Assembly: GCA_016213125.1 (NCBI GenBank)
Contig: JACRBR010000354.1
Span: 1-40,026, forward strand
DNA length: 40,026 nt
Source: Chloroflexota bacterium
Lineage (GTDB): Bacteria; Chloroflexota; Dehalococcoidia; DSTF01; JACRBR01
Direction of reading: 5' to 3'
The translations under genes were made by a program, and so were the position numbers. Of the stretch, positions 1 through 30,724 are shown piece by piece. The notes under the pieces were generated by a model, which did not search any database, was not told where the DNA came from, and saw nothing but the letters and a program-made list of their open reading frames with translations. How positions within the stretch are numbered: position 1 is the stretch's first letter; each line of letters begins with the position of its first letter.

Positions 1-420
1 AACAACCCAGGCTGCAAGCCCGGCCATGACCGCCGCACAGACAGACGCCTCCATCGACGCCACGACCCCACGAGACACAGGATCCAGCCGTGCCGCGAGC
101 ATGCTCAACGCGAACGCCAGCGCGCCGAATGTCGCTGGTGCGCGCCGTCCCAGGAGCGCCCCCATCGCCAGGGCTCCGGCAATGAGTGCCCACGCCACCA
201 GCGGGAGCGCTTGGTGGCCCAGCCGCTCGATCGCCTCCGTCGCGATCGAACCGGGCGCGTGGCGCACAAGCCTGTTGCCCAGCGCATACGGCGCGAACGG
301 CAAGCCCGGTGCCGCTTCGTGAAGAAGATACTCCGAGAGAAGCCCAACGCCCGCTGCGGCCAGCCCGGGCCTGGTGAAAAACCAGACCCGGGCCAGCCGC
401 GTTGGAGGGGAGGAGGTCAT
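1..420 (-). CDS. Partial hydrophobic membrane protein of unknown function (3' end lies beyond window start)
   Basis: Checked codon by codon: the frame is open from ATG 420..418 to position 1. It is absent from the ORF track because no stop lies in the window. Its ATG shares one base with the TGA of the upstream cupredoxin gene (TGATG). Translation MTSSPPTRLARVWFF...LPLVAWALIAGALAMGALLG...AAVMAGLAAWVV has hydrophobic helices. Confidence 0.5.
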   Translation of the reverse strand, partial: MTSSPPTRLARVWFFTRPGLAAAGVGLLSEYLLHEAAPGLPFAPYALGNRLVRHAPGSIATEAIERLGHQALPLVAWALIAGALAMGALLGRRAPATFGALAFALSMLAARLDPVSRGVVASMEASVCAAVMAGLAAWVV

Positions 421-905
421 CAAGTTCCGGCTGGTATCAGCGATCCCACCATGCCCGACGTGCGATGGTATTTGCACACGTAGGGCACGGCGCCACCGTC
501 CAGCTTTATTTGAACCGTGATCAGTTCGCCCGGCGCCACGTCCATGTCAATGTTCTGGTTGGCGATGCTTACGTTGTGCAGCGCCGCTCCAGTGTTGCTA
601 ACCACCATGGTGACGATTCCCGGCTGAAGAGCCGTCACGCAGGTCGGCGAAAAGAAGGAGTCACCCGCCTCCACCTCCATCGTCGTCCCCGCCGCCGCAA
701 CAGCGCCGTGGTCATTGATGTTGCCGGTCAGCCCGCTGTTGGCAGGACACGTCGCCGCGGCCGCATTCGTCGTGGCGACGGGACTGGCGACGTTCGTGTT
801 ACTGGCTGCCGGCGAGGCCGTCGCGGCATCATCCCCGCTCGAACAAGCGGCTGTCAGCAACACGAGCCCTGCGATGCCCCCAAACAGTGTCCAGCGAGAC
901 CTCAT
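420..905 (-). CDS. Cupredoxin (type-1 blue copper) lipoprotein
   Basis: ORF track 420..908. The second Met (ATG 905) overlaps the TGA of the upstream gene. Signal peptide with lipobox LLTAAC. Cupredoxin ligand pattern: His (ALHNVS) plus C-x2-H-x4-M (VCKYHRTSGM). Confidence 0.85.
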   Translation of the reverse strand: MRSRWTLFGGIAGLVLLTAACSSGDDAATASPAASNTNVASPVATTNAAAATCPANSGLTGNINDHGAVAAAGTTMEVEAGDSFFSPTCVTALQPGIVTMVVSNTGAALHNVSIANQNIDMDVAPGELITVQIKLDGGAVPYVCKYHRTSGMVGSLIPAGT

Positions 906-1792
906 CACTGGATCTTCACCTCCACCTTGTCGGAAACTTCCGGCGCCAGCGGCGCGTGGCCGTTGTCCGTCAGGAGCGGGATGAGCGTGTGCGTCGAACC
1001 CGGCTCGAATCCGGCCGTCGAGGCGTGGAACACGGTAGTGCAGCTCATGCCCGCCATCGTGCCCATGCCCATCATCGGGCCTGTGGTGCTGTCGAAGTTG
1101 AGATGCCAGTGCCCGTATCCCGCCACGGCCGGCTTGCCGAACAGGTCGCAGCTGAGGTTGAAGTTCTGCACCTCGACCACGATGTCGAAGTTCCCGGAGA
1201 CGGTGTCGCCCGCTTTGGGGCTGATGATCTTGATCGTGGGGGCGGCGGCGGAGGTCGCGTCCGCTATTTCCGCCAACGGGTTGGTGGGCTGGTAGTCGAT
1301 CGTCACGGAAACCGCGTTGTCATGCACCTCTGCGTGGTCGTTTTGCGCCGGCACAATCGTGAGCGTGTGCTTACCCGGCTTCACGTTCTGCAGCGAGATC
1401 GTGGTTTGCGGCGTGCACACCATGTCGATGAGTGACCTGTCGATCTCCGTGTGATAGTGCCCATTGCCCTCTTTCACGGGCTTGCCCGCCTCATCGCAGG
1501 TCAGTTCGAATCCGGTCGCCGTGACATCGAGCGTCACCTCGTTGGCGGTGATGATCGCGCCATCGGCCGGCGCGATGATCGCCAGCTTCATGTTCTCGGC
1601 CCCGGGCTGCATGGGCATCATCTCGGGCGTTGCCGCGCTCGCCGCGGCCGTTGTGGGCGCCGTCGTCGGTGCCTGCGTAGCGGCCGGCAGCGCCGTCGGC
1701 GTGTCGTCCTCCGTGTCGCTGTCGCCGCACGCGGCGGCGATGAGTGCTACGCCGGCGACGGCCAGCACAAGATGTGGAATACGCACCTTCAT
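905..1792 (-). CDS. Lipoprotein with two DUF4399-like repeats (GHYH / GHWH motifs)
   Basis: ORF track 905..1822, with the start moved to MKVRIPHL (ATG 1792, GGGAGA upstream). Lipobox LIAAAC. Two internal repeats (IIAPADGAII...GKPVKEGNGHYHTEID and IISPKAGDTV...GKPAVAGYGHWHLNFD) match the pattern I associate with DUF4399. Confidence 0.75.
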   Translation of the reverse strand: MKVRIPHLVLAVAGVALIAAACGDSDTEDDTPTALPAATQAPTTAPTTAAASAATPEMMPMQPGAENMKLAIIAPADGAIITANEVTLDVTATGFELTCDEAGKPVKEGNGHYHTEIDRSLIDMVCTPQTTISLQNVKPGKHTLTIVPAQNDHAEVHDNAVSVTIDYQPTNPLAEIADATSAAAPTIKIISPKAGDTVSGNFDIVVEVQNFNLSCDLFGKPAVAGYGHWHLNFDSTTGPMMGMGTMAGMSCTTVFHASTAGFEPGSTHTLIPLLTDNGHAPLAPEVSDKVEVKIQ

Positions 1793-2081
1793 TGGAATCT
1801 CCCTTCTCTCTCCTCCGGCCAATTTCCTTTGTAGCGTGGATCACACAGACCCGCGCCTCTGTGAGCGGCGTCACAGTGGGCAGGGTCGTCATCCTTGGCG
1901 GTTCTCGGGTCGAGCATCGGCTGACCAAAATGGAGGTCGACAGGACAATGCCAGGTCACGGTGTGATCTTGATCACCGAGGGCGACCCGCCGTACCGAAT
2001 AGGGTGAGTGCAGAACTAGGGCCGGACGGACAGGCAGATGTTGTCCGGAGCCGACCTGCTCGGAAGAAGGAGAACCGGATC

Positions 2082-2922: not shown

Positions 2923-3297
2923 ATGAGTGGTCACGAGTGGCTCATCGGGCTCTACGCCCTGAACTTCTCGCTGTTGATGACCCATCAGGTCGACTCCTCC
3001 TACTGGGAGGAGTGGGACCTGTTCCACATCCCGGGCGGCAACCAGCTCAACTTGGTATTCAATCTCGTGTTACTGCTCGTCGGAATGGCCGGGTTCGGGT
3101 TCCTGGTGGCCGGCCGTGCCGCGGGCGACTACCTCGCGCTCATTCTGGCCGGAGCCGGCCTCTTCGCGTTCTGCATCCACGCCTTCTTTCTCGCCCGCGG
3201 CGATCAGCGTTTCAGGCAGCCCGCGTCGCTCGTGCTGCTGATCGCCTTGCTCCCGCTCTCGGTGGCCATGGGCCTAACGTCGGTCGCGCGCTTCTGA
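2923..3297 (+). CDS. Small membrane protein (3-4 TM), function unknown
   Basis: ORF track 2923..3297. N-terminal HQVDSSYWEEWDLF motif followed by hydrophobic helices. A hairpin terminator lies downstream. Confidence 0.65.
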   Translation: MSGHEWLIGLYALNFSLLMTHQVDSSYWEEWDLFHIPGGNQLNLVFNLVLLLVGMAGFGFLVAGRAAGDYLALILAGAGLFAFCIHAFFLARGDQRFRQPASLVLLIALLPLSVAMGLTSVARF

Positions 3298-3427: not shown

Positions 3428-3886
3428 TCAGTCCACGCTGATGGTTCCGGTCATCGTCGTTGGGTGGGCGTCGCACACGTAGAAGTAGTTCCCCGCTTCC
3501 ATCTCCACCTGCAGCGTCTGCTTGATGGGTCCTGACTCGAGTTCAGTCTTGGCCAGGCTCGAACCCGTGGCGTCGGTTCCCTTGAACACGTGGACGTTGT
3601 GCGGCACGCCACCGTCCTGGTTGTCGAACTCGATGGTCACCGCCCCGGCGGCCGCTTCGAGCTTGTCGGTGCTGAACAGGATGTCCTTGCCGACCAGCGC
3701 CAGCGTGCTCGGCTTCGCCGCCACTGCCTCCGTCGGCGCGGCGGTGGGGGCCGCCTGCGTCGCCGCCGGGGCCGGACTGTTGGCGCTCGGTTCGTCGCTG
3801 TCGCTATCTCCACCACAAGCCGCCGAGCCCAACAGCACCAGGGCTGCTCCAGCGGCTACCACCGTGATCTTCATTCGCAACTGCAT
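3428..3886 (-). CDS. Cupredoxin (plastocyanin/amicyanin-like) lipoprotein
   Basis: ORF track. AGGAGGAGGAG lies 3 nt upstream of ATG 3886. Lipobox LGSAAC. Ligands: His (VPHNVHVF) and C-x2-H-x3-M (VCDAHPTTM). Confidence 0.9.
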   Translation of the reverse strand: MQLRMKITVVAAGAALVLLGSAACGGDSDSDEPSANSPAPAATQAAPTAAPTEAVAAKPSTLALVGKDILFSTDKLEAAAGAVTIEFDNQDGGVPHNVHVFKGTDATGSSLAKTELESGPIKQTLQVEMEAGNYFYVCDAHPTTMTGTISVD

Positions 3887-3950: not shown

Positions 3951-5438
3951 TCAGCTTGCCCGGCGCGCCCAGAGCGAGCCGCTCATCGCACACAGTCCGG
4001 CAAGACCCAGTGCGAGCGCTAGCAGTGTGCGCAGCATGTGGTCGGAGCTCCCTGCGCCGTCCCCCGCGTCCGGTAGCAGCGTTCCTTCGGCCACCGCCTT
4101 CACGATGATCGTGCCGGTCTGTCCCTGGCCCGCGTGCAGCGTGCACTTGTAGCTGTAGCTGCCTGCCGACTTGAACGTGAATGTGTAGCTTTCTCCGCTG
4201 TTCATCAGCTGCTTCGACGCCCACACACCGCTGTCGGCAGTCGTGTTGTGAGGAGCGTTGCCCTTGTTCGTCCACCGGATCGTGTCCCCGACGGCGATGG
4301 TCGTCGCGTTCGGCGAGAACTTGAAGTCCTGCATGGAGACATCCACCGTCATCGGGGCGCGCGAGACGGCCCGCGGGCCCGCTGCCGCGCCACCAGCCGA
4401 CGCTGCCTCGATGTTCGCCGATTCCTCTGCCGCCGCCGGGGCTGTCGCCGCGGCGGCCGGCACCGTTGGCGATGCAACCGCTGAGGTCACAGCGGTGGGG
4501 CTGCTGCCATCCTGCACCACGGTGATGGTGCCGGTCTGGACGTCCGGGTGGATCTCGCACTTGTAGTTGTACGTCCCCGCGGTGTTAAAGGTTTTGTCGA
4601 ACGAGCCTCCGTTGGCGACAATGCTGGAATCCCAGTTGCCGCTCGAGGTTGAGGTGTGCGGGGTGCCACTGTTGTTCACCCAGCGCACCGTGTCGCCCAC
4701 GCGAACGGTCAGGGCGGCCGGCTCGAACAGGTAGTTCTTCATCTGCACCGTCACCGTGTCCGGAAGCGGCGTCGGGGAAAGCGTCGGAGTGGCTGAGGGC
4801 GGCGTCGTGGGTGACGGCACCGGCGTGTTCGTCTGGGTCGGCGTCAGGGTCGGTTCCGCGGTGTTGGTCGCCGTCGAGCCCGGCGGGGGGGTGTTCGTGA
4901 TGGTAGGGGTGTTGCTCGGCGTCGCCGTATCGGGAGCCTGCACCGTCACCTTGCCCACCATCATGCCCGCGGCGATGTTGGCATCGACCACCGTGGGATC
5001 CGCGTCCGCGCGCGCTGCGTGCAGGCTACAGAAGTAGGTGAATGTGCCGGACGCGCTGAAAGTGTGGCTGAAGCTGCTGTTCGCCGTCCCGCTCTTGAGA
5101 TTGGGCGAGTTCCAGACGGCCACGTCGGGTGCGGACTCCTCGAACGACGTGATATCGTGGAACTTGGCGTCGGCTGCGCTGTTCCACGTCACGGTGTCGC
5201 CCTCTGAGATCGTGATGGCGGCGGAGTTGTACTGCTGGACGCCGATGGCGCCGCCTCCATTCGTCTCGCCGATAGTCACGGTGGTTGTTGCGGCGCCCGC
5301 GGGCTGCGGCCGGGCCGCGGACGGCCAGAATGCGACCACCCAGGCCGCGCTCAGCAGGACCACGCCAAACACACCGAGTACCCGGCGGGAAACTGCTAGC
5401 GACATCGTGGCGGTCCGGAATCTGATTTGGGTGTTCAT
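3951..5438 (-). CDS. Exported protein with three cupredoxin domains, Pro/Thr-rich linkers and a C-terminal LPDAG + TM + RR anchor
   Basis: ORF track 3951..5489, with the start moved to MNTQIRF (ATG 5438, GGAG upstream). Signal/TM segment VLGVFGVVLLSAAWVVAF. Copper-site motifs FCSLH...GMMVGK, YKCEIHPDVQTG and YKCTLHAGQGQTG. Linker PSNTPTITNTPPPGSTATNTAEPTLTPTQTNTPVPSPTTPPSATPTLSPTP. Confidence 0.9.
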   Translation of the reverse strand: MNTQIRFRTATMSLAVSRRVLGVFGVVLLSAAWVVAFWPSAARPQPAGAATTTVTIGETNGGGAIGVQQYNSAAITISEGDTVTWNSAADAKFHDITSFEESAPDVAVWNSPNLKSGTANSSFSHTFSASGTFTYFCSLHAARADADPTVVDANIAAGMMVGKVTVQAPDTATPSNTPTITNTPPPGSTATNTAEPTLTPTQTNTPVPSPTTPPSATPTLSPTPLPDTVTVQMKNYLFEPAALTVRVGDTVRWVNNSGTPHTSTSSGNWDSSIVANGGSFDKTFNTAGTYNYKCEIHPDVQTGTITVVQDGSSPTAVTSAVASPTVPAAAATAPAAAEESANIEAASAGGAAAGPRAVSRAPMTVDVSMQDFKFSPNATTIAVGDTIRWTNKGNAPHNTTADSGVWASKQLMNSGESYTFTFKSAGSYSYKCTLHAGQGQTGTIIVKAVAEGTLLPDAGDGAGSSDHMLRTLLALALGLAGLCAMSGSLWARRAS

Positions 5439-5612
5439 GGCTCCATCTCCTTGTTCACAGACAGTCTCCGTCACGCGCGAACCCGCCACAGGTTCGAAGT
5501 GGCCTTATCGGGTCGGGCATATGTACCGATCGGCATCGACCAAGGTCGATCTGTCAGCAAAACCCGCGTCTGGGCTGCATTGTGAGCGGCGTTTCCGGCG
5601 TACAATCGGTGC

Positions 5613-7085
5613 GTGAGCAATCAAGTGACGACAGCGGAGGGGGCCAGCCCCGCAGGTTCAGGCGAATCTGGAGCGCTTCGAGATCTGGCGCTTCGCGGCA
5701 TGCGAGCCGTGGCAGCGCCGATGCGCCGTCTCAGCTTCTCGCAGCAGTTCATGCTCTTCGGCCTCGTCGTGCTGGTGGTCGGGGCCTTTGTCATTGGCCG
5801 GTGGGTTTCGCAGGAGATCGAGCAGGGCGTCGTCGACCGGACGGCAGGGGTGACCGCGCTATACGTAGATAGCTTCATGAGTCCGAATCTTCAGGAGCTG
5901 GAAGACAGCCAGACCATCTCCCCTGCCTACTTCAGCCGCCTGGATTCCCTGCTGACCGAGAGCGAGCTGGGACAGGAGATAGTCTCGTTCAAGGTGTGGT
6001 CGCTCGACGGACGGGTCCTTTATGCGCGCGACCGGTCGCTTGTCGGATCCCAGTTCCCGCTGGAGGACGACCTGCAGGGCGCCATTCAGGGTCGGGTTGT
6101 GGCGGCCATGTCGAACCTCGACGCGGAAGAGAACGCGTCCGAGCGCGCTATCGCAGACCGCCTGTTGGAAACGTACGCTCCGGTCCGGTCTCACAATAAC
6201 AATGACGTGATCGGCGTGATGGAGTTCTACATGTCTCCTGATCAGCTCGAGGAGGACGTGGCGGACTCGCAGATGAAAGGGTGGCTAATCGTCGGCACCA
6301 GCACCATCGTCATGTATCTCCTGCTCGTGGGTATGGTGAACGGTGCGTCCAGCACCATCACGCGACAGAACCGAAATCTGCGCGATCTGCTCGAGCGCAA
6401 CGCCGAGCTGGGCGAGCGCGTGCGCATGGCCGCTGCCAGCAAAGCCGAGACCGACGAGCAGGTCATGATGCGTATCGGCCACGAGCTGCATGACGGCCCG
6501 GCGCAGGACCTGGGTTTGGCGCTCCTGCGGCTGGACGACTTGCGTCAGGCCTGCGATGCGTGCGCGGCAGTCACAAAGCCGCCCCAGGACTTCGAGGCTA
6601 TTCGCGACGCGATGGACCGCGCGCTCCATGAGCTGCGCGACATCGCTTCCGGCCTGCGGCTCCCGGAACTGCAGGCGCTCTCAGTCGAACGTGTCGTCGT
6701 GAGGGCCATCGACGAGCACAAGCGCAAGAGCGGGGCGAGCGTGCACTTCTCCTCAGCTATCGAGAAACTCCCTGCGGACGTGGATACTGCTCACAAGATC
6801 GCCCTGTACCGGGTCACGAAAGAGGCTCTGCACAACGCCTGGAAACACAGTGGGGTCAACGAGGCATCCGTATCCCTGACCGCTGACGCCGGCTGGTTGC
6901 GGCTGGAGATCAGCGACCCCGGTGCGGGATTCGATCCCGGCCGCGTCGATACGCGCACATCGCTGGGCTTGCGTGGCATGCGCGAGCGGATCGAGTTGCT
7001 CGCGGGCCAACTCTCGGTTGAATCGCACTCCAAGACAGGTACAGTGGTCACGGCCCGCGTACCCTATACCCAAAGGGCGAATTGA
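5613..7085 (+). CDS. Sensor histidine kinase, NarL-partner type (HisKA_3 + HATPase_c) with extracytoplasmic sensor domain
   Basis: ORF track (GTG start). Two TM segments flank a ~170-aa loop. H-box HELHDGPAQDL. ATPase motifs ALHNAWKHSG, ISDPGAGF and GLRGMRERIELLAG. Confidence 0.88.
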   Translation: MSNQVTTAEGASPAGSGESGALRDLALRGMRAVAAPMRRLSFSQQFMLFGLVVLVVGAFVIGRWVSQEIEQGVVDRTAGVTALYVDSFMSPNLQELEDSQTISPAYFSRLDSLLTESELGQEIVSFKVWSLDGRVLYARDRSLVGSQFPLEDDLQGAIQGRVVAAMSNLDAEENASERAIADRLLETYAPVRSHNNNDVIGVMEFYMSPDQLEEDVADSQMKGWLIVGTSTIVMYLLLVGMVNGASSTITRQNRNLRDLLERNAELGERVRMAAASKAETDEQVMMRIGHELHDGPAQDLGLALLRLDDLRQACDACAAVTKPPQDFEAIRDAMDRALHELRDIASGLRLPELQALSVERVVVRAIDEHKRKSGASVHFSSAIEKLPADVDTAHKIALYRVTKEALHNAWKHSGVNEASVSLTADAGWLRLEISDPGAGFDPGRVDTRTSLGLRGMRERIELLAGQLSVESHSKTGTVVTARVPYTQRAN

Positions 7086-7726
7086 TGGACAAAATCCGCA
7101 TCCTCCTCGTCGACGACCACGCGCTATTCCGCGAGGGCGTGAAGCACACGCTCACCCGCCACGAGGAGTTCGAGGTGGTGGCCGAGGCCGGCGACGCGGC
7201 GAGCGCACTCGACCGCGCGCGGGCGTTCCTGCCGGACATCGTCTTGCTGGACATCAACCTGCCGGATCGGGCGGGCGTCGACGTCGTAAAGGATCTGCAG
7301 GCGGAGTTGCCGTACTGCAAGGTGATCATGTTGACGATGCTGGAGGACAACGACTCCCTCATGGCGGCCATCACGAATGGCGCGCGGGGATATGTGCTGA
7401 AGGGCGTCGCCGGCGACGAGCTCGCGCGGATCGTCCTCTCAATTCATGCCGGAGAAACCTACGTGACCCCCGCCATGGCCGCTCAGCTCCTCACCGAGCT
7501 TGCGCACCAGGAACACGCCGCCGCGGACCCGCACCACCAGCTCACCGAGCGGGAGCATGCCATCCTGGAGTTGGTAGCGGACGGCAAGACGAACAAGGAG
7601 ATCGGCGCCGTGATGTTCTTGACGGAGAAGACCGTCAAGCACTACATGACCAACATCCTCCAGAAGCTGCAGGTCCGCAACCGCGTCGAGGCCGCGCTCA
7701 AGGCGCGGGACATCCGCCCCCACTGA
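7085..7726 (+). CDS. Response regulator, NarL/FixJ family (REC + LuxR-type HTH)
   Basis: ATG 7085 overlaps the kinase TGA. Motifs: ILLVDDHALFREG, DIVLLDINLPDRAG and LTEREHAILELVADGKTNKEIGAVMFLTEKTVKHYMTNILQKL. Confidence 0.92.
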   Translation: MDKIRILLVDDHALFREGVKHTLTRHEEFEVVAEAGDAASALDRARAFLPDIVLLDINLPDRAGVDVVKDLQAELPYCKVIMLTMLEDNDSLMAAITNGARGYVLKGVAGDELARIVLSIHAGETYVTPAMAAQLLTELAHQEHAAADPHHQLTEREHAILELVADGKTNKEIGAVMFLTEKTVKHYMTNILQKLQVRNRVEAALKARDIRPH

Positions 7727-7780
7727 TTCCAGCCGCTCACCGATAGCTCCAAAGGAATGTGCCTCAAGGTACAGGTCGAT

Positions 7781-7818
7781 GCCGCCTGGGAGCGCCAAAC
7801 GGCCCTCCTCCAGGCGGC
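7781..7818 (+). terminator. Hairpin after the two-component operon
   Basis: 9-bp perfect arms GCCGCCTGG / CCAGGCGGC with a 20-nt loop, 55 nt after the regulator stop. No clear T-tract. Confidence 0.35.
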
Positions 7819-7993
7819 GATGTTCCCCTTCAACGCAAGACCTAGGTCAACGGAAACGTAGACCATCGATCGCAGTCGCCGGAGGTGCGTCTTCTTAGGA
7901 TCAGGTTGAACACGTAGATCCGCGGAACTTCCTCGAGGGAGCACCAACCAGCGGGTCGCGAACCGGAACACCTGATAGGGAGGAAGGCGAGTC

Positions 7994-9268
7994 ATGGGAA
8001 CTATTGGAAGCATCCAGCGTTTGCTCAGGGTCATGCTGCCGCTCGCCGCATTGGCGCTTGTTGCCACCGTCGTTTCGAACGGCGGCGGAATCAACTCCGC
8101 CAGCGCGGCCACGACGACCGTGACCGTGGGCCAGACCAACGGCGGTGGCGCAACCGGCGTCAACCAGTTCAACGCCGCCGCAATCACCATCTCAGCGGGC
8201 GATACCACCCAGTGGAACAGCGCGCTGGACAACCGCTCGCACGACGTCACGTCATATGCCGAGACGGTGCCCGGCACGCCTGACTGGCAGTCGCCGACGC
8301 TGCGCAGCGGCACGGCGAACACGACCTTCAGCCGCGTGTTCAGTACGGCGGGTACCTACACCTACTACTGCTCGCTCCACGCGAGTCAAAGCGATGCGGC
8401 CCCAGGGGTCATCGACGCCAACATCGCGTCCGGCATGATGGTCGGTAAGATTACGGTCAACGCTCCCGCGCCCGACACCACGGCCCCCGCGGCCAGCGCG
8501 GTCGCCGCGTCGCCGAACCCAACTGATGGCGCTTCGAGCGTTGCCCTCACGGCGACCATCGCGGACTCGGGTACGCCTCTCGGCACGATCGCTTCGGCGC
8601 AATACCGCGTCGACGGCGGAAGCCCCGTCGCCATGTCCGCCGTGGACGGCACCTTCAACGGCTCGTCCGAGAACGTCACGGCAAACGTTCCCGTTGGCGC
8701 TCTGAGCCTCGGCAACCACGTTATCGAGGTGCGCGGCACCGACCTCGCCGGCAACATCGGCGCGTATGTCGCACTGTCCGGCGGCCTCAACGTGACCGCC
8801 CCGCCGGCAGGTGCGGTCCAGGCCACCATCAATGTCCAGGGTGGCGCTCTCACCAATACCGCCCAGAACATCGCCTTCCCGGCCGTCGCCCTCAGTGGCG
8901 CCGACCAGACCGTGCTCGCGGCAGCGGCCGCATGGCAGGCCAAGGATGCCCGCGGCACCGGCGATGGGTGGAACGTGACAATCGCGTCCACAAACTTCAC
9001 CGGCGCCGGCACCATCGGGGTCGCCAACTTCAAGTGCAAGCAGGACCAGGCGGATATCGTGACGGTTTCGGGCAACACCGCCCCGAACTCGATGGTAACC
9101 ACCTTCCAGTCCCTGAGTGGCACGCCGCTCAAGCTGCTCCAGGCCACTGGCGGCGCTGGTATGGGTACGTACGACTACACGCCGGACTTCCAGCTCACGG
9201 TTCCGGCCAGCACGGCGGCGGGTTCGTACACCGCAAACGTCACGGTCAGCATCAATAGCGGGCCGTAG
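7994..9268 (+). CDS. Secreted cupredoxin / Ig-like / WxL-like domain fusion protein
   Basis: ORF track; GGGAGGAAGG RBS and signal peptide. The N-terminal domain is paralogous to domain 1 of 3951..5438 (YCSLHASQSDAAPGVIDANIASGMMVGK). The C-terminal region has WxL-type signatures: KDARGTGDGWNVTIASTNF and a terminal YTANVTVSINSGP. Confidence 0.85.
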   Translation: MGTIGSIQRLLRVMLPLAALALVATVVSNGGGINSASAATTTVTVGQTNGGGATGVNQFNAAAITISAGDTTQWNSALDNRSHDVTSYAETVPGTPDWQSPTLRSGTANTTFSRVFSTAGTYTYYCSLHASQSDAAPGVIDANIASGMMVGKITVNAPAPDTTAPAASAVAASPNPTDGASSVALTATIADSGTPLGTIASAQYRVDGGSPVAMSAVDGTFNGSSENVTANVPVGALSLGNHVIEVRGTDLAGNIGAYVALSGGLNVTAPPAGAVQATINVQGGALTNTAQNIAFPAVALSGADQTVLAAAAAWQAKDARGTGDGWNVTIASTNFTGAGTIGVANFKCKQDQADIVTVSGNTAPNSMVTTFQSLSGTPLKLLQATGGAGMGTYDYTPDFQLTVPASTAAGSYTANVTVSINSGP

Positions 9269-9306
9269 TCAGGGCCCATAGTGAGTCCAGTCAGCTTAGT
9301 CAGTCG

Positions 9307-9333
9307 CCCCCGGGGTACTCTGTACCCTGGGGG
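9307..9333 (+). terminator. Strong hairpin between the two WxL genes
   Basis: 12-bp stem CCCCCGGGGTAC / GTACCCTGGGGG (one G-U pair) with loop TCT. No T-tract. Confidence 0.45.
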
Positions 9334-9353
9334 CATACCCATCGGCGAGAAAT

Positions 9354-10781
9354 GTGGAGAGCGGGACCGGAGTAGTGACAGACTCAATTTACTGGGGTAC
9401 CGCCGGCGACCGAGGCCGCCTGGCGGTGCGCTTCGCGGTCGTAGTTTTCAGTCTGTGCCTGCTTTCCATCCTCGGACTCCGCGCTGCCGTCGCTGATTCA
9501 ACCGGCTTCCGTAACCCGTCAGCTCAGACCGCCGCGACGGGCGGCGATGGTAACGGGTACGAAACGAATCCCACCCAGGCCTTCACGGACGCGAATGGCG
9601 AAACGGAAGACAGAGATAGTGGCACCAACGGCAACCTCTCCTGCACCGATGCCGGCAAAGACCGGCATCTTTTCTACAACTACGGGTTCACGGTCCCGGC
9701 CGGCGCTACGATCAATGGCATCGAGGTCTTGGTGGACGCGAGGCTTGACTCAGCGACCGGATTCATATGCGTGCAGCTCTCCTGGGATGCTGGCGCAACC
9801 TGGACCACCGCGAAACAGACCACCAACCTCACAAGCTCCTTCGCCAACTATACGGTGGGCGGGACGGCTGACACCTGGGGGCGCACGTGGTCATCTTCGG
9901 ACCTATCAAACGCGAACTTCCGGCTCCGCGTGATAAATGTCGCCAACAACACGTCCGCCCGCTTCCGGCTCGACTGGATCCCGGCGCAGGTTCACTACAC
10001 CCCGGCAGCGCCTCCAGATACGATCGGGCCCACCACGAGCAACGTCGCCGCCTCGCCGAATCCAACCGCAGGCGCCGCTTCGGTCACGCTCACGGCGAAT
10101 ATCAGCGACGTCGGGCAGGGCGGATCGAGTATCGCCGCTGCCGAGTATTTCCTGAACTCAGCGGGAGCGCCCGGCACCGGCGCGTCGATGTCCGCCGCCG
10201 ACGGGGCGTTCAACTTACCGACAGAGGCCGTCACCGTGCTGCTCTCAACCGCCGGGCTGGCGGCGGGGGATCACCAGGTCTTCATCAGGGGCCGCGACGG
10301 CGCGGGCAACTGGGGCAGCGCCAGCTCCACGGAGCAGACCATCGGCGGGGGTGCAAACCTCTCCCTATCCGCACAACCCGTGTCCTTCGGCAGTGTCAAC
10401 ATCAACGGCAGCGACCAGCTGCTGATGGTGGCTTCACCGCCCTGGCGCGCGAGCGATGGGCGCGCGTCCGGTGATGGCTGGCACGTCACCGTCCAGTCGA
10501 CGGACGTCATCGCCGCCCTGGGCACGATCCCGGCCGGCAACCTGAAGGTGCAGGTGAAGCAGTCGGGCATCACGACCATCTCGGGCAACGCGCCTCCGGT
10601 CTCCCTCGCTACGTCGTACCAGCCGCTCTCGTCTTCACCGTTGAAGCTCATCGCCGCGGCACCAGGCACCGGTATGGGTACATATGACTTCGCGATGGAG
10701 TTCGAGCTGATGCTGCCGGCCAGCGCCTATGCCGGTGAGTACACGGCGTCGCTCACGACAAGCATCAATAGCGGACCCTGA
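9354..10781 (+). CDS. Secreted WxL-like domain protein with unknown N-terminal domain and Ig-like middle domain
   Basis: ORF track (GTG 9354; GTG 9375 after GGAG is an alternative start). Signal/TM segment FAVVVFSLCLLSILGL. The middle domain is paralogous to that of 7994..9268. WxL-type motifs SDGRASGDGWHVTVQSTD and a terminal YTASLTTSINSGP. Confidence 0.8.
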   Translation: MESGTGVVTDSIYWGTAGDRGRLAVRFAVVVFSLCLLSILGLRAAVADSTGFRNPSAQTAATGGDGNGYETNPTQAFTDANGETEDRDSGTNGNLSCTDAGKDRHLFYNYGFTVPAGATINGIEVLVDARLDSATGFICVQLSWDAGATWTTAKQTTNLTSSFANYTVGGTADTWGRTWSSSDLSNANFRLRVINVANNTSARFRLDWIPAQVHYTPAAPPDTIGPTTSNVAASPNPTAGAASVTLTANISDVGQGGSSIAAAEYFLNSAGAPGTGASMSAADGAFNLPTEAVTVLLSTAGLAAGDHQVFIRGRDGAGNWGSASSTEQTIGGGANLSLSAQPVSFGSVNINGSDQLLMVASPPWRASDGRASGDGWHVTVQSTDVIAALGTIPAGNLKVQVKQSGITTISGNAPPVSLATSYQPLSSSPLKLIAAAPGTGMGTYDFAMEFELMLPASAYAGEYTASLTTSINSGP

Positions 10782-10791
10782 GGAGCACGCC

Positions 10792-11838
10792 ATGACCCAC
10801 CTTCGCACAGCCGGCATAAGCGCCATGATCATCGTCGTCATGCTACTGGGCGCGCTCGGCGGTGGGACACACGCAGGCGCACAGGGCAGCGTCCAATTCA
10901 GCATCCAGCCCGACCGGGATACCGGCCAGGAGGATGCGTACTTCACCTACACCGCGAAGGCCGGGGATACGATCAGCGACGAAGCGCTCGTTATCTCCAC
11001 TGGCAGCGAGGCCGTCACGTTGAAGCTCTATGCCGCGGACGCGATCACGGCGATTGGCGGTGGGACGGCCTTCGCTGGACTGGACGAGGACCGGACGGGC
11101 GTGCGCGCATGGGTGCGTTCATCGCTCGCCGAGGTCTCGCTCACCCCCGGCGGGCGTCAGACCGTTCCGTTCACGGTGGTGGTCCCGGCCGACGCCGCCC
11201 CCGGCGATCACATCGCCGGCCTCGTGGTGGAAGCGCCACCGAAACAGGGCCAATCAGGTGGCGTGCAGACGTCCGTGACGGAGCGCGTTGGCGTCGCCGT
11301 CGTGGTTCGAATAGCTGGCGAAGCGCGCGAGGAACTGGCGCTCGGCGGCATCTGCCTCAACCAGGAGACCGGCAGCAACTACTTTCAGGTGCCTGTCGCC
11401 AACAACGGCAACATCCTGTCGCGGCCTTCGGGGGAGTTCATCCTGCAGCGCCAGGGTGGCTCGGAGGTGTTCCGCAAACCCATCGTCCCGGCCACCATCC
11501 TGCCACAGGATGCAACCTTCCTCCGCATCGATGCCCCCGCCGATCCCGGCGAGGGTCGCTACACCGCGATCGTGCACCTGAATCAGACCGACGGGCGAGT
11601 CGCCGAGGAGTCCAGCGATATACGCATTCGCGATGAAAAGGTGAACGGCTGCCAGGCGACCGACGCCATCCCCGCCGCAACCGCCGTCGTGCTCGGCGAG
11701 AATGTGGTGCGCGACGAAGGCGACGGGGGCGGCCTTCCGCTCCTGACGCTGAGCCTGATCGGCATTGTGGTGCTGCTGGCACTGCTGCTCATCGCGAGCG
11801 AGATCCTGCGGCGCCGTCGGCGTTCCATAGCCCGCTGA
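10792..11838 (+). CDS. DUF916/DUF3324-like cell-surface protein (WxL-cluster partner) with C-terminal TM anchor
   Basis: ATG 10792 after GAGGAG, with a signal peptide. VQFSIQPDRDTGQEDAYFTYTAKAGDTISDEALVISTGSEAVTLKLYAADA fits the DUF916 pattern. C-terminal LPLLTLSLIGIVVLLALLLIASEILRRRRRS. Confidence 0.75.
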   Translation: MTHLRTAGISAMIIVVMLLGALGGGTHAGAQGSVQFSIQPDRDTGQEDAYFTYTAKAGDTISDEALVISTGSEAVTLKLYAADAITAIGGGTAFAGLDEDRTGVRAWVRSSLAEVSLTPGGRQTVPFTVVVPADAAPGDHIAGLVVEAPPKQGQSGGVQTSVTERVGVAVVVRIAGEAREELALGGICLNQETGSNYFQVPVANNGNILSRPSGEFILQRQGGSEVFRKPIVPATILPQDATFLRIDAPADPGEGRYTAIVHLNQTDGRVAEESSDIRIRDEKVNGCQATDAIPAATAVVLGENVVRDEGDGGGLPLLTLSLIGIVVLLALLLIASEILRRRRRSIAR

Positions 11839-11881
11839 GCGCGGTCGCTGCGGGCTATGCGGGCTGCTGGGACAGTGGCTG

Positions 11882-13660
11882 TCAGCGTGTTTCGCGCGCG
11901 CCGTAGTACGGCATTACCACCTGGCCGTCGGTGCGCTTGCCGCCGGTGGCGGCGGCCGCGCCGACCATGGCAACGGTGATGGGGGCGATGATGTCCGGGT
12001 CTGTCAGGACGTTCACGCACGCCGGACGCCCGGAAGCGAACGCGCGATCGAGGGCCGGGATGATGTCCCGGGGATCTTCCACCAGCTCGCCGTGACACCC
12101 GAAGCCTTCGGCGGCGCGGTCGTAGCGCACGACCCCCAGCTCTGAGACGACGGTGCGCCCTTTGCCGTACATGAGTTCCTGGCCGTGCTTCGACATGCCC
12201 CACTGCTGGTCGTTGTTGACGACCACCACCACCGGCAGTCCGTGGCGCGCCAGCGTATCGAACTCCGCGAAGTTCAGGCCGACCGAGCCGTCGCCCGTGA
12301 TGCAGACCACCCGGCTGTCCGGGTGCGCGACCTGCGCGGCCACAGCGAACGGGATGCCCGTGCCCAGGCAGCCGAGGTAGCCGTGCGAGAGCCAGTGGCC
12401 GGGACGCCTGATTGTCGACGAGGACTCGGCCCAGAATGAAGTCTCGCCGCCGTCGGCCACCAGCACATCACTCTCACGGTCCAGGTATGCCGCCAGGTCC
12501 CGCGCGAGCTGGTGCGAGTGAATGGGACGGTGGTCGTCCGCGTACGAGGCGTTGAGCAGCGTGCGCATCGCGTTCCGGGCGCCCTGCAGCGCCGACGTCC
12601 ATGCTTGCCGATCAGGCCACCGGTGGTCGCCTGCGCCGTTCAGCAGGGCGTGCACGACCTGGCCGCAGTCCGCGCCGATGCCGAGTTCGATCCGCCTGTT
12701 GCGCCCGATCTCCTCAGGCTCGACATCCACCTGGAAGACCGTGGCCGTCGGCGGAATGAAGGGTCGCCCCGCGCTGCCCGTGAAGAGGCCGAGCCGCGCT
12801 CCCAGCAACAGCACGACGTCCGGACCCTGATCGGGCGGAAGCGTGGCGAGTGTCATGAAGCCACCGCCCGAAAGACGGTGGTCCTCGGGAAGTGCCGCGC
12901 GGCCTCGGCCGTTTGCGAGGACGGGAATGCCCGTCGCCTCGGCGAACGCCCGGAGCGCATCCGTTCCCTTGCCGAACCAGACCCCGCCCCCGGCCATGAT
13001 CAACGGTCGCTGCGCCGCCGCCAGCGCCTGCAGCATGCTCGCGATCGCGTAGGTGGACGCTGCGGGTGGGTCGATGCGTGCGGGGCTTCCAAAAGATGCG
13101 TGTCCAGCGTCAGTGTGCGCAAAGAGCACATCGGCAGGAATCTCGAGAAATACCGGCCCCGGGCGCCCCGTGGTTGCCATCCGCAGCGCCTGGCAGAGGT
13201 AGTCCGCGAGGCGGTCGATGCGGGTCACCGTGGCAGCCCACTTCGTGACGGGCCGCATCAGGTCCAGTTGCGAAAACCCACCCTGAAGAGGAAGACGCTC
13301 GTCGTCCGAGAGCGGACTGCGGCCGCCGATCACCAGGATGGGAACGCAGTCGACGTAGGCGTTCGTGACGGCCGTGACCACATCCGTCACGCCGGGACCG
13401 GCGGTAACGATGGCGACGCCCACGTTGCCCGTCGTACGTGCCCAGCCATCGGCCGCGTGACCGGCCGCCTGCTCGTGACGCGTGTCGACGAGGCGAAGCC
13501 CGCGATCAAGCGCCGATTGGAAGATGGCGTCCAGGTGGCCGCCGTGCAGCGTGAAGACCGTGGTGACGCCGTGGTCCAGCAGCGTGCGCACGACGATCTC
13601 GCCCCCATCGATGGTCGCGGTCTGCTGGTGATTGGTCATGGACCTGGCCGGCGCGCTCAT
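11882..13660 (-). CDS. Thiamine-diphosphate-dependent enzyme (acetolactate synthase large subunit / oxalyl-CoA decarboxylase superfamily)
   Basis: ORF track, 592 aa. N-terminal PYR domain RHEQAAGHAADGWARTTGNVGVAIVTAGPGVTD. TPP motif GDGSVGLNFAEFDTLARHGLPVVVVVNND. Confidence 0.9.
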   Translation of the reverse strand: MSAPARSMTNHQQTATIDGGEIVVRTLLDHGVTTVFTLHGGHLDAIFQSALDRGLRLVDTRHEQAAGHAADGWARTTGNVGVAIVTAGPGVTDVVTAVTNAYVDCVPILVIGGRSPLSDDERLPLQGGFSQLDLMRPVTKWAATVTRIDRLADYLCQALRMATTGRPGPVFLEIPADVLFAHTDAGHASFGSPARIDPPAASTYAIASMLQALAAAQRPLIMAGGGVWFGKGTDALRAFAEATGIPVLANGRGRAALPEDHRLSGGGFMTLATLPPDQGPDVVLLLGARLGLFTGSAGRPFIPPTATVFQVDVEPEEIGRNRRIELGIGADCGQVVHALLNGAGDHRWPDRQAWTSALQGARNAMRTLLNASYADDHRPIHSHQLARDLAAYLDRESDVLVADGGETSFWAESSSTIRRPGHWLSHGYLGCLGTGIPFAVAAQVAHPDSRVVCITGDGSVGLNFAEFDTLARHGLPVVVVVNNDQQWGMSKHGQELMYGKGRTVVSELGVVRYDRAAEGFGCHGELVEDPRDIIPALDRAFASGRPACVNVLTDPDIIAPITVAMVGAAAATGGKRTDGQVVMPYYGARETR

Positions 13661-15645: not shown

Positions 15646-15975
15646 GGTAGCTCCTCCTGCGGGGCCGGGGGGCCATGCATGTGCCACAGACTAGCGCCGG
15701 TGGGGCCGGGCCATGCAGAGCCTGATGGACCCGGTGTAGCCTGCCTTTTGGCAGGTGCACGGCCCGGTTGCCGACTCGGAATGATTCGGTTGCTCCTGCG
15801 TCGCCCTGCCCCCGGCTCGAGCGCGCCGTAGTCCTCTCCCCGGAACGACGTGCACGGAACGCTGCGTTTGCTGCCCTGCCCGACATGCGGCCCCGCGTCA
15901 TCCTTCCATTCGGCCCTTACCGCGCCCCGCCGCCTTTTCCATGCTTTGCGTACCCGGCGGAAAGAAGGAATCACC

Positions 15976-18768
15976 GTGGCCACACTTCGGCCTGTCGCAG
16001 GCGCCGGAACCCACGACGCATCGGCCCAACCGTACCGCGACCAGCTCGCCTTCGACCGCTGGGGGTGGGGGAGCCACTGCGTCGACTGCTATCCAAGCAA
16101 CTGCCCCTACCGCGTCTATGTGAAGGACGGCGTCATTGTCCGCGAAGAACAGTCGGGCTCATTCGACGTGGTGGAGCCGGGCGTTCCCGACATGAACCCC
16201 ATGGGCTGCCAGAAGGGCGGCTCCTGGAGCAGGCTGCTGTACGGCGGCGAGCGCATTCTCCACCCGATGCGGCGCGCCGGCGAGCGAGGAGAGGGGCGAT
16301 GGACCCGCATCTCCTGGGACGAGGCGCTCACCGAGATCTCGGAGAAGATGCTCGACACGATCCAGCACGAGGGCCCGGAGAGCATCGTGCGCGTCGGTAC
16401 GCCGGGGCAGGGGGGTGCACAGAGCATCGCCCTTGGCGGCGCGATCTTCAACAAGCTGGGCTGCACGACCACGGACGTGCAGGGCGAGATCAACGACTGG
16501 AGTCCCGGCGTCTACGCGACGTTCGGCCGGTTTGACCCCTGCGCCAGCAACGACGACTGGTTCCACTCCGACGTTCTGGTCATCTGGGGAAACAATCCCG
16601 CCTACAGCGACATCCCCCTCTACCACTACATCACCGAAACCCGATACCACGGCGCGCAGGTGGTGGTGATCGCCCCCGACTTCAGTCCTTCGGCCGTGCA
16701 CGCCGACCTGTTCGCACCGGTGCGCATCGGGTCGGACGCCGCGCTGGCGCTGGCGATGTGCCGCGTCATCATCGACGAACATCTCATGGACCGGGGGTTC
16801 GTACGCGAGCAGACGGACCTGCCCCTGCTGGTCCGGCGGGACAACGGGAGATTCCTGCGCCAGTCCGACCTCATCGAGGGCGGCCGCGACGACATATTCC
16901 ATGTGTTCGACAAGACGGACCAGCGCGTGGCGGAAGCGCCTCGCACGCTCGACCTGGGCGCGCTGGTGCCCGCGCTCCAGGGGACGTTCACGGTGACGTT
17001 GAAGGACGGCGCTCAGGTGGACGTGAGCCCCGCGTTCGTGCTCCTGGTCGAGAAGCTCCGGGAGTTTCCTCCGGAAGCCGCTGCGGGCGTGTGTGGCGTC
17101 CACGCCGACGTCATCCGGCGCCTGGCGCGCATGGTCGCTGGCGGCAAGACACACATCCTGGACGGCTGGACGTTCGGGAAGTCCTACCACGGCGATCTCA
17201 TCGAACGTGCGATGTGCCTGGTGCTGGCGCTGACCGGCAACTGGGGGAAGCAGGGCGCGGGAATCCGCAGCTGGGCGGTGGGGATGTTCGACGGGATGTT
17301 CACCTGGTCCGCAAAGGCCAAACCCGGGGTGGAGGCGGCCCGCCAGATGCAGGCCGGGCTCAACGCCATGACGGCTGGCGCGCTCGAGCAGGACCCAACG
17401 CTGACCGAGGAACTCATCGTGCACGAGATGGGGTATCGCGGCGCGGCGATGGGCGGCAACGTGCCCCCGGCATTCTTCTGGTTCAACCACTGCGGTTACC
17501 GGGAGATCTGGGACCGGCCCGGCTGGGGCGATCCGGCGATGAAGCGGACCCTGTCGGAGTACGTGAAGGAGGCCATCGACCGCGGCTGGTGGGGCGGCGC
17601 GCAGTACCCGGCGCCGGACTCCTCTCCGCGGGTGCTGTTCGAGATCGGCGGTAACCTGCTACGCCGGCAGCGCGGGGGGCAGCAGCAGTTGTTGAAGCAC
17701 CTCTGGCCGAAGCTGGAACTCGTCGTCTCGCTCGACGTACGCATGACGACGACAGGCCTGTGGTCAGACATCGTCCTGCCCGCCGCCCATCACTACGAGA
17801 AGCCGAACTTCCCCTACACGACGCCGGATGTGATGAACCTCACACTCTCCGACCGGGTGGTGGAGCCGCCCGACGACGTCAAGAGTGAATGGCAGTTCAC
17901 GCAGGCGCTGGCAAACAAGCTTTCGGAGCGCGCGGTCGCGCGCGGCTTCACGTCGTTCCAGTCGCGGCTTGGCATGCCGGTCCGGCTCGATAACCTTTAC
18001 AACGAGATCACAAAGGACGGGCACTACGCCGAGGACGACACCGTCATCAATGAGATGGTGATCGACTCCGCGGCAGCGGGAACGCTGCCGGAGGAGACGA
18101 CGCTGGAGACGCTTCGTGAGACCGGGTACGTGCGCTTCACCGCGTGGGGCCGGTCGCCCATGGCGCTCGCGCAGGCATCAGACCTCAAGCCGCATGAGAC
18201 GCATTCGCCGTTCCGCTGGCAAACCGAGAAGAAGCAGCCGTTCCCCACGCTGACGCGGCGCGCCCAGTTCTACATCGATCACGACTGGTTCCTGGAGGCC
18301 GGCGAAGAGCTGCCCACGCATAAGGAGCCACCATGGCAGGGTGGCGACTACCCGCTGGAGATCACGGGCGGGCATCCCCGCTGGAGCGCGAACTCAACGA
18401 ACATGACCAACCGGATCATCCTGAACACGCATCGAGGCAAGCCGACCGTATACGTGAACGACCGCGACGCCGTCGCGCGTGGGATCGTTGATGGCGACGA
18501 TATCCGCGTCTTCAACGACGTCTCGGAGGCCTTCGTCGAGGCGCGCGTGACTCCATCCGTCCGCCCGGGTCAGCTGATCATGTACAACGGGTTCGAGCCA
18601 TACCAGTTCGAGGGTTGGCGCGACACGGCGAACGTCGAGCCTGGGATGGTGAAGTGGCTGCACTTCGCGGGCGGATACGGCCACCTGCGCTACCGCGCCA
18701 TTCACTGGCAGCCGGTGCCCATCGACCGTGGTGTGCACGCGAACATCGAACTCGCACATTCCCGCTGA
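15976..18768 (+). CDS. Type-II DMSO-reductase-family molybdopterin oxidoreductase, catalytic alpha subunit (paralog A; no Tat signal)
   Basis: ORF track 15850..18768. GTG 15976 lies 5 nt after GAAGGAA. FS0 motif WGSHCVDCYPSNCPYRVYVKDG. Blocks EINDWSPG, REQTDLPLLVR, YHGDLIER...ALTGNWG, TLTRRAQFYIDHDWFLEAGE and GGYGHLRY. Monocistronic. Confidence 0.92.
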   Translation: MATLRPVAGAGTHDASAQPYRDQLAFDRWGWGSHCVDCYPSNCPYRVYVKDGVIVREEQSGSFDVVEPGVPDMNPMGCQKGGSWSRLLYGGERILHPMRRAGERGEGRWTRISWDEALTEISEKMLDTIQHEGPESIVRVGTPGQGGAQSIALGGAIFNKLGCTTTDVQGEINDWSPGVYATFGRFDPCASNDDWFHSDVLVIWGNNPAYSDIPLYHYITETRYHGAQVVVIAPDFSPSAVHADLFAPVRIGSDAALALAMCRVIIDEHLMDRGFVREQTDLPLLVRRDNGRFLRQSDLIEGGRDDIFHVFDKTDQRVAEAPRTLDLGALVPALQGTFTVTLKDGAQVDVSPAFVLLVEKLREFPPEAAAGVCGVHADVIRRLARMVAGGKTHILDGWTFGKSYHGDLIERAMCLVLALTGNWGKQGAGIRSWAVGMFDGMFTWSAKAKPGVEAARQMQAGLNAMTAGALEQDPTLTEELIVHEMGYRGAAMGGNVPPAFFWFNHCGYREIWDRPGWGDPAMKRTLSEYVKEAIDRGWWGGAQYPAPDSSPRVLFEIGGNLLRRQRGGQQQLLKHLWPKLELVVSLDVRMTTTGLWSDIVLPAAHHYEKPNFPYTTPDVMNLTLSDRVVEPPDDVKSEWQFTQALANKLSERAVARGFTSFQSRLGMPVRLDNLYNEITKDGHYAEDDTVINEMVIDSAAAGTLPEETTLETLRETGYVRFTAWGRSPMALAQASDLKPHETHSPFRWQTEKKQPFPTLTRRAQFYIDHDWFLEAGEELPTHKEPPWQGGDYPLEITGGHPRWSANSTNMTNRIILNTHRGKPTVYVNDRDAVARGIVDGDDIRVFNDVSEAFVEARVTPSVRPGQLIMYNGFEPYQFEGWRDTANVEPGMVKWLHFAGGYGHLRYRAIHWQPVPIDRGVHANIELAHSR

Positions 18769-30722: not shown

Positions 30723-30724
30723 GT

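Follow-up and report, generated by a model that had tools for sequence, protein, structure and literature searches.

A WxL-type gene cluster with a cupredoxin head in a Chloroflexota genome: a putative surface complex carrying a type-1 copper domain

In a 40,026-nucleotide (nt) stretch of DNA from a Chloroflexota bacterium (contig JACRBR010000354.1 of assembly GCA_016213125.1, here called the window), three co-directional open reading frames (ORFs), named A, B, and C, fill exactly the span 7994-11838, which a preliminary description made from the letters alone had flagged as a cell surface cluster of the WxL type. On balance, we regard A-B-C as a WxL-type surface complex whose cargo is a type-1 copper electron transfer domain and not an adhesin. 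A is a secreted protein with a cupredoxin head on a stalk of Ig-like and WxL domains, B has the same stalk under another head, and C is a WxL-interacting protein (WxLIP). All the sequence features quoted for these three consecutive secreted proteins in the preliminary description are present, and in sequence terms the WxL, cupredoxin, and WxLIP features are far beyond chance. The numbers of homologues found were 106 for A, 260 for B, and 87 for C. Table 1 lists the coordinates of all features.

Each of the three genes encodes an N-terminal hydrophobic signal segment. Gene A is preceded by a strong ribosome-binding site (GGGAGGAAGG), and the database gene call for B begins at codon 8 of the frame used here. 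The longest ORF of gene C (10729-11838) overlaps B by 53 nt; given a GAGGAG 7 nt upstream and a position 10 nt past the B stop, its start is most likely ATG 10792. The intergenic gaps are 85 nt between A and B and 10 nt between B and C. The G+C content is ca. 65% across the whole window, so nothing in its composition points to a recent import of the cluster. A tRNA scan of the window found none, and a promoter and terminator scan of 7600-12100 gave the same counts as in shuffled sequence.

The Pfam WxL profile (PF13731) matched A with 31.5 bits against a cut-off of 25 (aa 290-424) and was found in 82 of 84 A-family members (best E value, 7.8e-10). B remained below the cut-off (17.3 bits), and several B orthologues carry PF13731. 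Given that A and B are 45% identical over the 271 residues of the Ig-like and WxL domains (E, 2e-63), B is paralogous to A and differs from it in the head, and the Ig-like module previously noticed in both proteins is indeed common to them; in some relatives, this spacer gave weak Big_13, Y_Y_Y, and Ig_J matches. As had been described, both proteins contain D(A/G)R(G/A)(T/S)GDGW(N/H)VT and end in YTA(N/S)(V/L)T(V/T)SINSGP; a signal segment stands at one end and the WxL domain at the extreme other (SINSGP-stop). In the first motif of A (W326-N-V), the Trp is invariant and Val takes the place of Leu, while the second (V418-S-I) is without Trp, and hence, the double Trp-x-Leu signature is absent. 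The strict W-x-L motif is not universal in the family, since WxL proteins of Bacillus and Paenibacillus have T-Y-S/T at the second position.

We searched 1.84 billion representative proteins with A4, a profile built from the Chloroflexota WxL part. It matched 2,798 clusters at an E value of ≤1e-3 and 783 at ≤1e-10; of the 150 hits listed, nearly all had the domain ≤ca. 3 residues from the C terminus. Many of the matches were proteins of ca. 180 aa, of the small WxL type, and others had 1,000 to 1,400 aa with LamG, F5/8-type-C, or Calx-beta heads; 7 of the 10 scanned carried the Pfam WxL domain above the cut-off (28 to 39 bits). Because profile searches of PDB sequences did not find the WxL chain of 9i25 and the Foldseek matches shown for full-length A were taken up by its other two domains (see below), the link to the Firmicutes proteins was built as a chain of homology through P0330, a small A4 member. 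A tblastn search with P0330 hit 213 records of plasmids carried by Bacillus, Paenibacillus, and Enterococcus; those listed are genes annotated as “WxL domain-containing protein,” and in the three plasmid loci fetched, these RefSeq WxL genes adjoin DUF916 or DUF916+DUF3324 genes. The alignment of A4 to four Firmicutes WxL proteins (E. faecalis, Paenibacillus, and B. thuringiensis) by hhalign closed the chain with a probability of 98.9% (E, 1.7e-17; 146 columns), including the columns D-x-R-G-x-x-G-W-x-[LV] and the terminal Y-x-[AS]-x-[LIV]-T-[WYV]-[ST]-[LIV]-x-x-[GA]-P. Judged by these profile comparisons, the C-terminal domains of A and B are homologous to those of Firmicutes WxL proteins.

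With 2,798 clusters at 50% identity, the WxL-like domain is far commoner in environmental bacteria than the literature states. One of the loci with A4 matches (L012; GCA_041643075.1, 3669-8540) is a small-plus-large set, consisting of a 1,082-aa match with LamG and discoidin heads, a 335-aa protein, and a 179-aa small WxL protein.

The identity of C as a protein of the DUF916/DUF3324 kind, proposed in the preliminary description, was borne out by profile, profile-profile, and fold comparisons. Pfam WxLIP_PGBD (DUF916, PF06030) matched with 29.3 to 29.5 bits against a cut-off of 27.3 and was present in 71 of 71 C-family members (best E, 1e-13). A scan of C for PF11797 (DUF3324) gave no match, and this second domain was seen by profile alignment and fold alone. 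The AlphaFold model of C (mean pLDDT, 86.7) has the WxLIP fold, with two beta-sandwiches, a disordered linker, and a long terminal helix, and its best Foldseek matches in the PDB were 9i1y (“WxLIP from Enterococcus faecium”) and 9i25_C (“WxLIP ... bound to long WxL”), with an E value of 3e-14, a target TM-score of 0.61 to 0.66, and ca. 260 columns that include both domains. Along similar lines, hhalign placed the C-family profile on an E. faecalis DUF916+DUF3324 protein (probability, 96.5%; E, 8e-10; 295 columns), the alignment beginning with the N-terminal strand and running through the transmembrane helix into the basic tail. The length of C, 348 aa, is within the range of WxLIPs (ca. 320 to 380), and the C-terminal hydrophobic helix is followed by RRRRR, as had been noted. 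In the published model, WxLIP is anchored by its transmembrane helix and binds WxL domains via DUF916 (PMC10599100). The next-best fold matches of C were the chaperone-usher pilus chaperones CfaA, Caf1M, FimC, and CsuC, which is consistent with WxL binding by strand complementation.

These results bear directly on the possibility that A, B, and C are generic secreted beta-sandwich proteins merely resembling WxL and DUF916 proteins. Such a reading could draw on the Pfam score of B, the missing PF11797 match in C, the second motif without Trp, and the failure of the WxL-part profiles to pick out the WxL chain of 9i25 among PDB sequences. However, it is contradicted by both hhalign results and by the E. 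faecium WxLIP structures being the best Foldseek matches of C, and it must also face the DUF916 neighbours of the RefSeq genes reached from P0330 and the C-terminal position of the domain in nearly all the A4 hits listed. We therefore consider it highly improbable; Pfam and hhalign upheld the WxL and DUF916 assignments on which the preliminary description hung, and Foldseek upheld the latter.

The cargo of A is a cupredoxin, as the preliminary description had proposed. Pfam Copper-bind (PF00127) matched aa 55 to 132 with 27.6 bits against a cut-off of 21.2 and was found in 74 of 84 A-family members, and by sequence the head matched the plastocyanin 1bxu in the PDB (E, 9e-7). NCBIfam gave plastocyanin-type matches, with all equivalog models far below their cut-offs (plastocyanin, 32 versus 88 bits). 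The AlphaFold model of A (mean pLDDT, 90.7) has three beta domains, at aa 40-156 (cupredoxin), 160-255 (Ig-like), and ca. 270-424 (WxL), and its Foldseek matches included plastocyanins and amicyanins, with target TM-scores of 0.64 to 0.74, and auracyanin A (2aan). His83, Cys126, His129, and Met149, in the canonical order of type-1 ligands, are invariant in 21 homologues that are 45 to 78% identical to A. The four ligands were also kept in every cupredoxin head on a WxL stalk that was checked, including those of the second gene, i.e., in 16 of 16 heads with a full loop and in the short-loop variants. Given that the type-1 site is complete and conserved, electron transfer is the favored function, and the head is predicted to bind one copper through these four residues and to carry single electrons.

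The ligand loop of A is of the form Cys-x2-His-x19-Met, with x17-25 in relatives, and is modelled with two short helices (aa 132-135 and 140-145). Most heads on WxL stalks share the pattern C-x2-H-A-...-D-A-x-P-...-I-D-...-G-x-M-V-G-K, and a few orthologues (P0039, P0043, and P0055) have a short loop. A resembles the plastocyanin/amicyanin family (PF00127), which provides the best sequence and fold matches for aa 40-156 and has an identical ligand order, but differs from it in the long helical insertion between His129 and Met149 and in the fusion to Ig-like and WxL domains. The long loop is a natural experiment in how loop length tunes type-1 copper sites, and the head (aa 39-158) is a small, defined target for spectroscopy and redox measurement.

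The head of B was described beforehand as unrecognized, and so it proved: aa 49 to 216 had no match in Pfam, NCBIfam, or PDB sequences, even with a profile of 17 sequences. We found only a local similarity of the Asp-box type (S-W-D-x-G-x-T-W) to sialidase and sulfite oxidase domains. Modules 50 to 58% identical to this head stand at the C terminus of subtilases, copper amine oxidases, carboxypeptidases, and SGNH esterases (among the proteins listed), and the module also occurs inside VWA proteins and as two or three tandem copies. Its named carriers are few and belong to Chloroflexi or Dehalococcoidia metagenome-assembled genomes (MAGs). As an Asp-box beta-sandwich that is also borne by secreted enzymes, the B head probably binds a polymer or substrate.

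This resemblance of the B head to a binding module is one reason to ask whether the cluster is an ordinary WxL cluster for adhesion or substrate binding, in which the cupredoxin fold is a mere binding module with no redox role, comparable to the Ig-like, LRR, or lectin heads on large WxL proteins of Firmicutes. Known large WxL proteins bear adhesive beta-sandwich heads (PMC9772566), and the WxL profile relatives with LamG, F5/8-type-C, and Calx-beta heads point in the same direction. On the other hand, a decayed copper site would not be expected to retain four invariant ligands at 45 to 78% identity and in paralogous heads, and the cluster is consistently accompanied by other cupredoxins with complete ligand sets. 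We find the purely adhesive alternative very unlikely.

The cupredoxin-WxL fusion is not unique to the window. It recurs in ca. 90 full-length homologues or sequence clusters, nearly all of them metagenomic; the few that are named come from Chloroflexi or Anaerolinea MAGs and are called “WxL domain-containing protein” (NCBI) or “plastocyanin” (JGI). One genome from each of 185,579 species was scanned, which returned five full-length loci, all in Chloroflexota MAGs, and one match to the WxL part only, on a short Gemmatimonadota contig. In every related locus, a WxLIP gene follows the cupredoxin-WxL gene or genes. The head of the middle gene varies, being of the Asp-box type in the window, L002/L003, and L006 and a cupredoxin in L001/L008, L007, L009, and L010; in L004/L005, the middle gene is absent, i.e., there is a single WxL gene. 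Further head swapping is seen in P0219-P0224, which lie on contigs of A orthologues, are 71% identical to the B stalk, and carry a Copper-bind head.

The related loci that reach past the three core genes have extra exported cupredoxin proteins nearby, either homologues of the tri-cupredoxin protein of the window or others. In the window itself, six cupredoxin domains lie within 12 kb, each in a protein with an export signal, and these proteins and their neighbors, the cluster included, make the left 12 kb an island of exported copper-type proteins. The tri-cupredoxin protein is membrane anchored, and its first (N-terminal, distal) domain is 56% identical to the A head (BLASTP E value, 5e-53) and has the same Met axial ligand and long loop. 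The second and third domains have Gln where Met is expected (CEIHPDVQTG and CTLHAGQGQTG), which suggests different redox potentials along one chain.

The same density of exported copper proteins could indicate copper handling, in which surface cupredoxins would bind or buffer copper or oxidize Cu(I) and the adjacent two-component system would sense copper. The DUF4399 lipoprotein with its H-x-H motifs (905-1822), a YHS domain gene close to the cluster in L002, and a weak CopI match of the tri-cupredoxin protein (37 bits) would fit this explanation. However, the cut-off of the CopI model is 280 bits, a type-1 site is a poor buffer since it holds a single buried copper, and neither the window nor the conserved neighborhood contains CopA, CopZ, CsoR, CusRS-type, or multicopper oxidase genes. 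Known copper sensors are two-component systems of the OmpR type, and the one found here is HisKA_3/LuxR (NarL-like). Copper resistance as such was rejected on the CopI score and the lack of Cop and Cus genes, and we judge copper handling in the broader sense unlikely. Copper handling and plain adhesion both fit the data less well than a tethered electron carrier.

Orthologues of the HisKA_3 sensor kinase and LuxR-type response regulator adjoin the cupredoxin-WxL gene in L001, L002, L004, L006, L007, and L009; L003 has part of the kinase at its cut end, and L005 and L010 include too little upstream sequence to judge. The extracytoplasmic domain of the kinase (aa 68-221, ca. 150 aa) had no Pfam family match; given its 43 to 59% identity across related loci, the signal it responds to is probably common to them. 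The two-component system probably controls expression of the cluster. The sequence GGTCRCGAA occurs 40 to 64 nt upstream of the cupredoxin-WxL start in three independent loci (window, 7954-7962; L002, 7937-7945; L004, 7952-7960), the window copy being GGTCGCGAA at 7954 in the 7727-7993 intergenic region. This element may belong to an operator for the LuxR-type regulator next to it, or it may simply have been inherited.

Building on the observed domain identities, ligand conservation, and synteny, we propose the following mechanism. The C-terminal helix and Arg tail of C would fix this protein in the cytoplasmic membrane, and its DUF916 domain would bind the C-terminal WxL domains of A and B, by analogy with the E. 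faecium complex of WxLIP and long WxL. In this way, A and B would stay noncovalently attached to the surface of the membrane or wall, and their Ig-like spacers would extend the head domains outward. Chloroflexota are generally seen as single-membrane bacteria, and such cells would need tethers for their carriers; the auracyanins of Chloroflexus, for instance, are lipid or helix anchored. The constant company of exported cupredoxins, among them the tri-cupredoxin protein with the closest paralogue of the A head as its distal domain, suggests a relay. The tri-cupredoxin protein, the lipoprotein cupredoxins, and the A head may thus form an extracytoplasmic cupredoxin relay in a cell without a closed periplasm. 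We infer complex formation, copper loading, the direction and partners of electron flow, and regulation from these features.

Several observations weigh against a tethered electron carrier of this kind. The first is the copper site itself, where the 19 residues between His129 and Met149 are far more than the 2 to 4 found in characterized cupredoxins; A therefore lacks the short loop of type-1 cupredoxins (Cys-x2-4-His-x2-4-Met). No redox partner was found in the conserved neighborhood, where we looked for an oxidase, a bc or ACIII complex, NirK, and multihaem cytochromes. With regard to the WxL domain, profile searches of PDB sequences (A4 and A6) gave only chance hits and did not find the WxL chain of 9i25, and the 50 Foldseek matches shown for full-length A were all cupredoxin or Ig folds, with no WxL fold match to the long WxL protein. 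The single membrane and peptidoglycan wall of the host are assumed from the phylum. Finally, regulation is proposed from the adjacency of the two-component genes; an enumeration of 12-mers upstream of A in eight loci gave no convincing shared operator, and GGTCRCGAA is absent from five of them.

A more far-reaching version of the tethered carrier, which we put forward as speculation and think improbable, is that the conserved unit conducts electrons through the envelope of single-membrane Chloroflexota by copper alone, without haem. Its parts would be the two-component system, the membrane-anchored tri-cupredoxin protein, the WxLIP, and one or two cupredoxin-WxL proteins. Electrons would pass from the membrane-proximal Gln-type domains of the tri-cupredoxin protein to its distal Met-type domain and on to the wall-displayed heads. 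Outside the cell, a metal, humic substances, or a partner cell, for instance, would act as acceptor or donor, and the flow could go either way. If true, this would be a cupredoxin counterpart of the multihaem cytochrome chains in Gram-positive electrogens, and the WxL/WxLIP pair would serve enzymes and redox proteins, and not only adhesins, as a docking system of general use.

To the right of the cluster, the window holds a molybdoenzyme region (15850-39071) that contains, besides five paralogous molybdopterin oxidoreductase genes, two Fer4_11 beta subunits, a NarJ-like chaperone, a MobB-FmdE fusion, and an ethylbenzene dehydrogenase-type gamma subunit (30593-31363). A clear Tat signal (MSRRLSRRTFLKGAGA) was seen only in the last molybdopterin catalytic subunit. 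A molybdopterin oxidoreductase adjoins the cluster in the window and in L002, and a more distant one is found in L007. These enzymes were considered as part of the unit and left out of it because the adjacent one has no Tat signal and the other loci have no such gene.

TABLE 1 Features of the cluster and its surroundings in the window
Feature	Position	Strand	Remarks
Gene A, secreted cupredoxin/Ig-like/WxL protein	7994..9268	+	424 aa; ORF and ribosome-binding site, Pfam, AlphaFold, 106 homologues
A signal peptide, aa 1-38 (...NSASA|A)	7994..8107	+	Hydrophobic segment aa 9-33; low-confidence N-terminal helix in model; A38 and A39 conserved
A cupredoxin head, aa 40-156	8111..8461	+	Pfam, NCBIfam, PDB sequence, Foldseek, ligand conservation
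A copper-ligand codons (predicted)	His83 8240-8242; Cys126 8369-8371; His129 8378-8380; Met149 8438-8440	+
A ligand loop, aa 126-149	8369-8440	+
A Ig-like spacer, aa 160-255	8471..8758	+	Common to B; beta-sandwich in model
A C-terminal WxL domain, aa 270-424	8801..9265	+	Motif 1, G325-W326-N-V; terminal Y412...V418-S-I-N-S-G-P424
Gene B, secreted Asp-box domain/Ig-like/WxL protein	9354..10781	+	475 aa from GTG 9354
B head domain, aa 49-216	9498..10001	+	168 aa; Asp-box LSWDAGATW; no family match
B Ig-like spacer, aa 221-322	10014..10319	+	Alignment with Ig-like domain of A
B C-terminal WxL domain, aa 330-475	10341..10778	+	GDGWHVT ... YTASLTTSINSGP; Pfam below cut-off; alignment with A; part of Chloroflexota WxL profile (A4)
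Gene C, WxLIP	10792..11838	+	348 aa; PF06030, Foldseek, hhalign
C DUF916/PGBD domain, aa 34-176	10891..11319	+	Conserved AYF motif aa 49-51; Pfam, alignment, model
C second beta-sandwich, DUF3324/HBD equivalent, aa 180-281	11329..11634	+	Foldseek and hhalign coverage; strands in model
C transmembrane helix, aa 315-339, and RRRRR stop-transfer tail, aa 340-344	11734..11823	+	Hydropathy 3.04; helix 317-347 in model
HisKA_3 sensor kinase	5613-7085	+	Pfam; two transmembrane segments around a ca. 150-aa extracytoplasmic domain
LuxR-type response regulator	7082-7726	+	Pfam
Tri-cupredoxin protein	3951..5489	-	512 aa; signal peptide; two long Pro/Thr/Ala-rich linkers; C-terminal transmembrane anchor (aa 486-507); Pfam Copper-bind x3
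Lipoprotein cupredoxin	3428-3886	-	Full His/Cys/His/Met set
DUF6713 membrane protein	2923-3297	+
DUF4399 lipoprotein	905-1822	-	Two G-H-x-H motifs
Lipoprotein cupredoxin	420-908	-	Full His/Cys/His/Met set
Molybdopterin (bis-PGD) oxidoreductase genes, five paralogues	15850-18768, 18884-21673(-), 24758-27754(-), 27846-30722, 32620-35535

In order to put the cluster into perspective, we compared it with WxL systems and with tethered blue copper proteins. No paper joining WxL with cupredoxin, and none on WxL proteins in Chloroflexi, was found in the library searched, in agreement with the preliminary description, which knew of no cupredoxin-WxL fusion. The A-family sequences are not new, since they are already in public databases under automatic names; it is the recognition of a conserved WxL cluster with a redox cofactor domain outside the Firmicutes that appears to be new. 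Work on WxL clusters has so far treated them as devices by which gut Firmicutes adhere and cause disease, and here the same docking is found in another phylum. Given the thousands of uncharacterized environmental WxL-like proteins, WxL and WxLIP may be a general route for holding proteins at the surface of wall-bearing bacteria. The cluster also suggests how Chloroflexota without a closed periplasm keep electron carriers of the soluble type.

Firmicutes account for 91% of known WxL sequences, and their heads are adhesin-like (PMC9772566). By definition, a WxL cluster has two or more WxL genes along with one or more WxLIP genes (Hassan et al. 2023, PMC10599100), and the consecutive genes A, B, and C agree with this. 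The minimal set of Hassan and Williamson (2022) comprises one small WxL protein (WxL domain only), one large WxL protein, and DUF916; the window contains no small WxL protein of ca. 180 aa, and A and B are both of the large, head-bearing type. As in the Csc clusters of L. plantarum (CscA-D), loci A to C of E. faecium (Lwp, Swp, and Duf), and the Elr operon of E. faecalis, two secreted proteins ending in WxL stand beside a DUF916-DUF3324-transmembrane protein, and as in Lactobacillales and Bacillales in general, WxL is at the extreme C terminus and modular heads sit on Ig-like spacers. Unlike the Firmicutes clusters, this one belongs to a Chloroflexota host with 65% G+C, carries a redox copper domain in place of an adhesin, has neither a small WxL nor an LPxTG protein, and adjoins a two-component system and further cupredoxins. 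Its second motif is V-S-I instead of W-x-L, and the two motifs are ca. 90 residues apart, compared to ca. 68 in large and ca. 106 in small WxL proteins.

The auracyanins A and B of Chloroflexus and the archaeal halocyanin and sulfocyanin, from organisms that lack a closed periplasm, resemble the tethered form proposed for A in having a type-1 His/Cys/His/Met cupredoxin on the external side of the cell membrane, and for all of these blue copper proteins the problem is to stop a soluble carrier from diffusing away. Whereas in those proteins a lipid or an N-terminal helix serves as the direct anchor and 2 to 4 residues separate the His and Met ligands, A has 19, and its anchor would be a separate protein module, WxL docked into WxLIP, with an Ig-like spacer in between.

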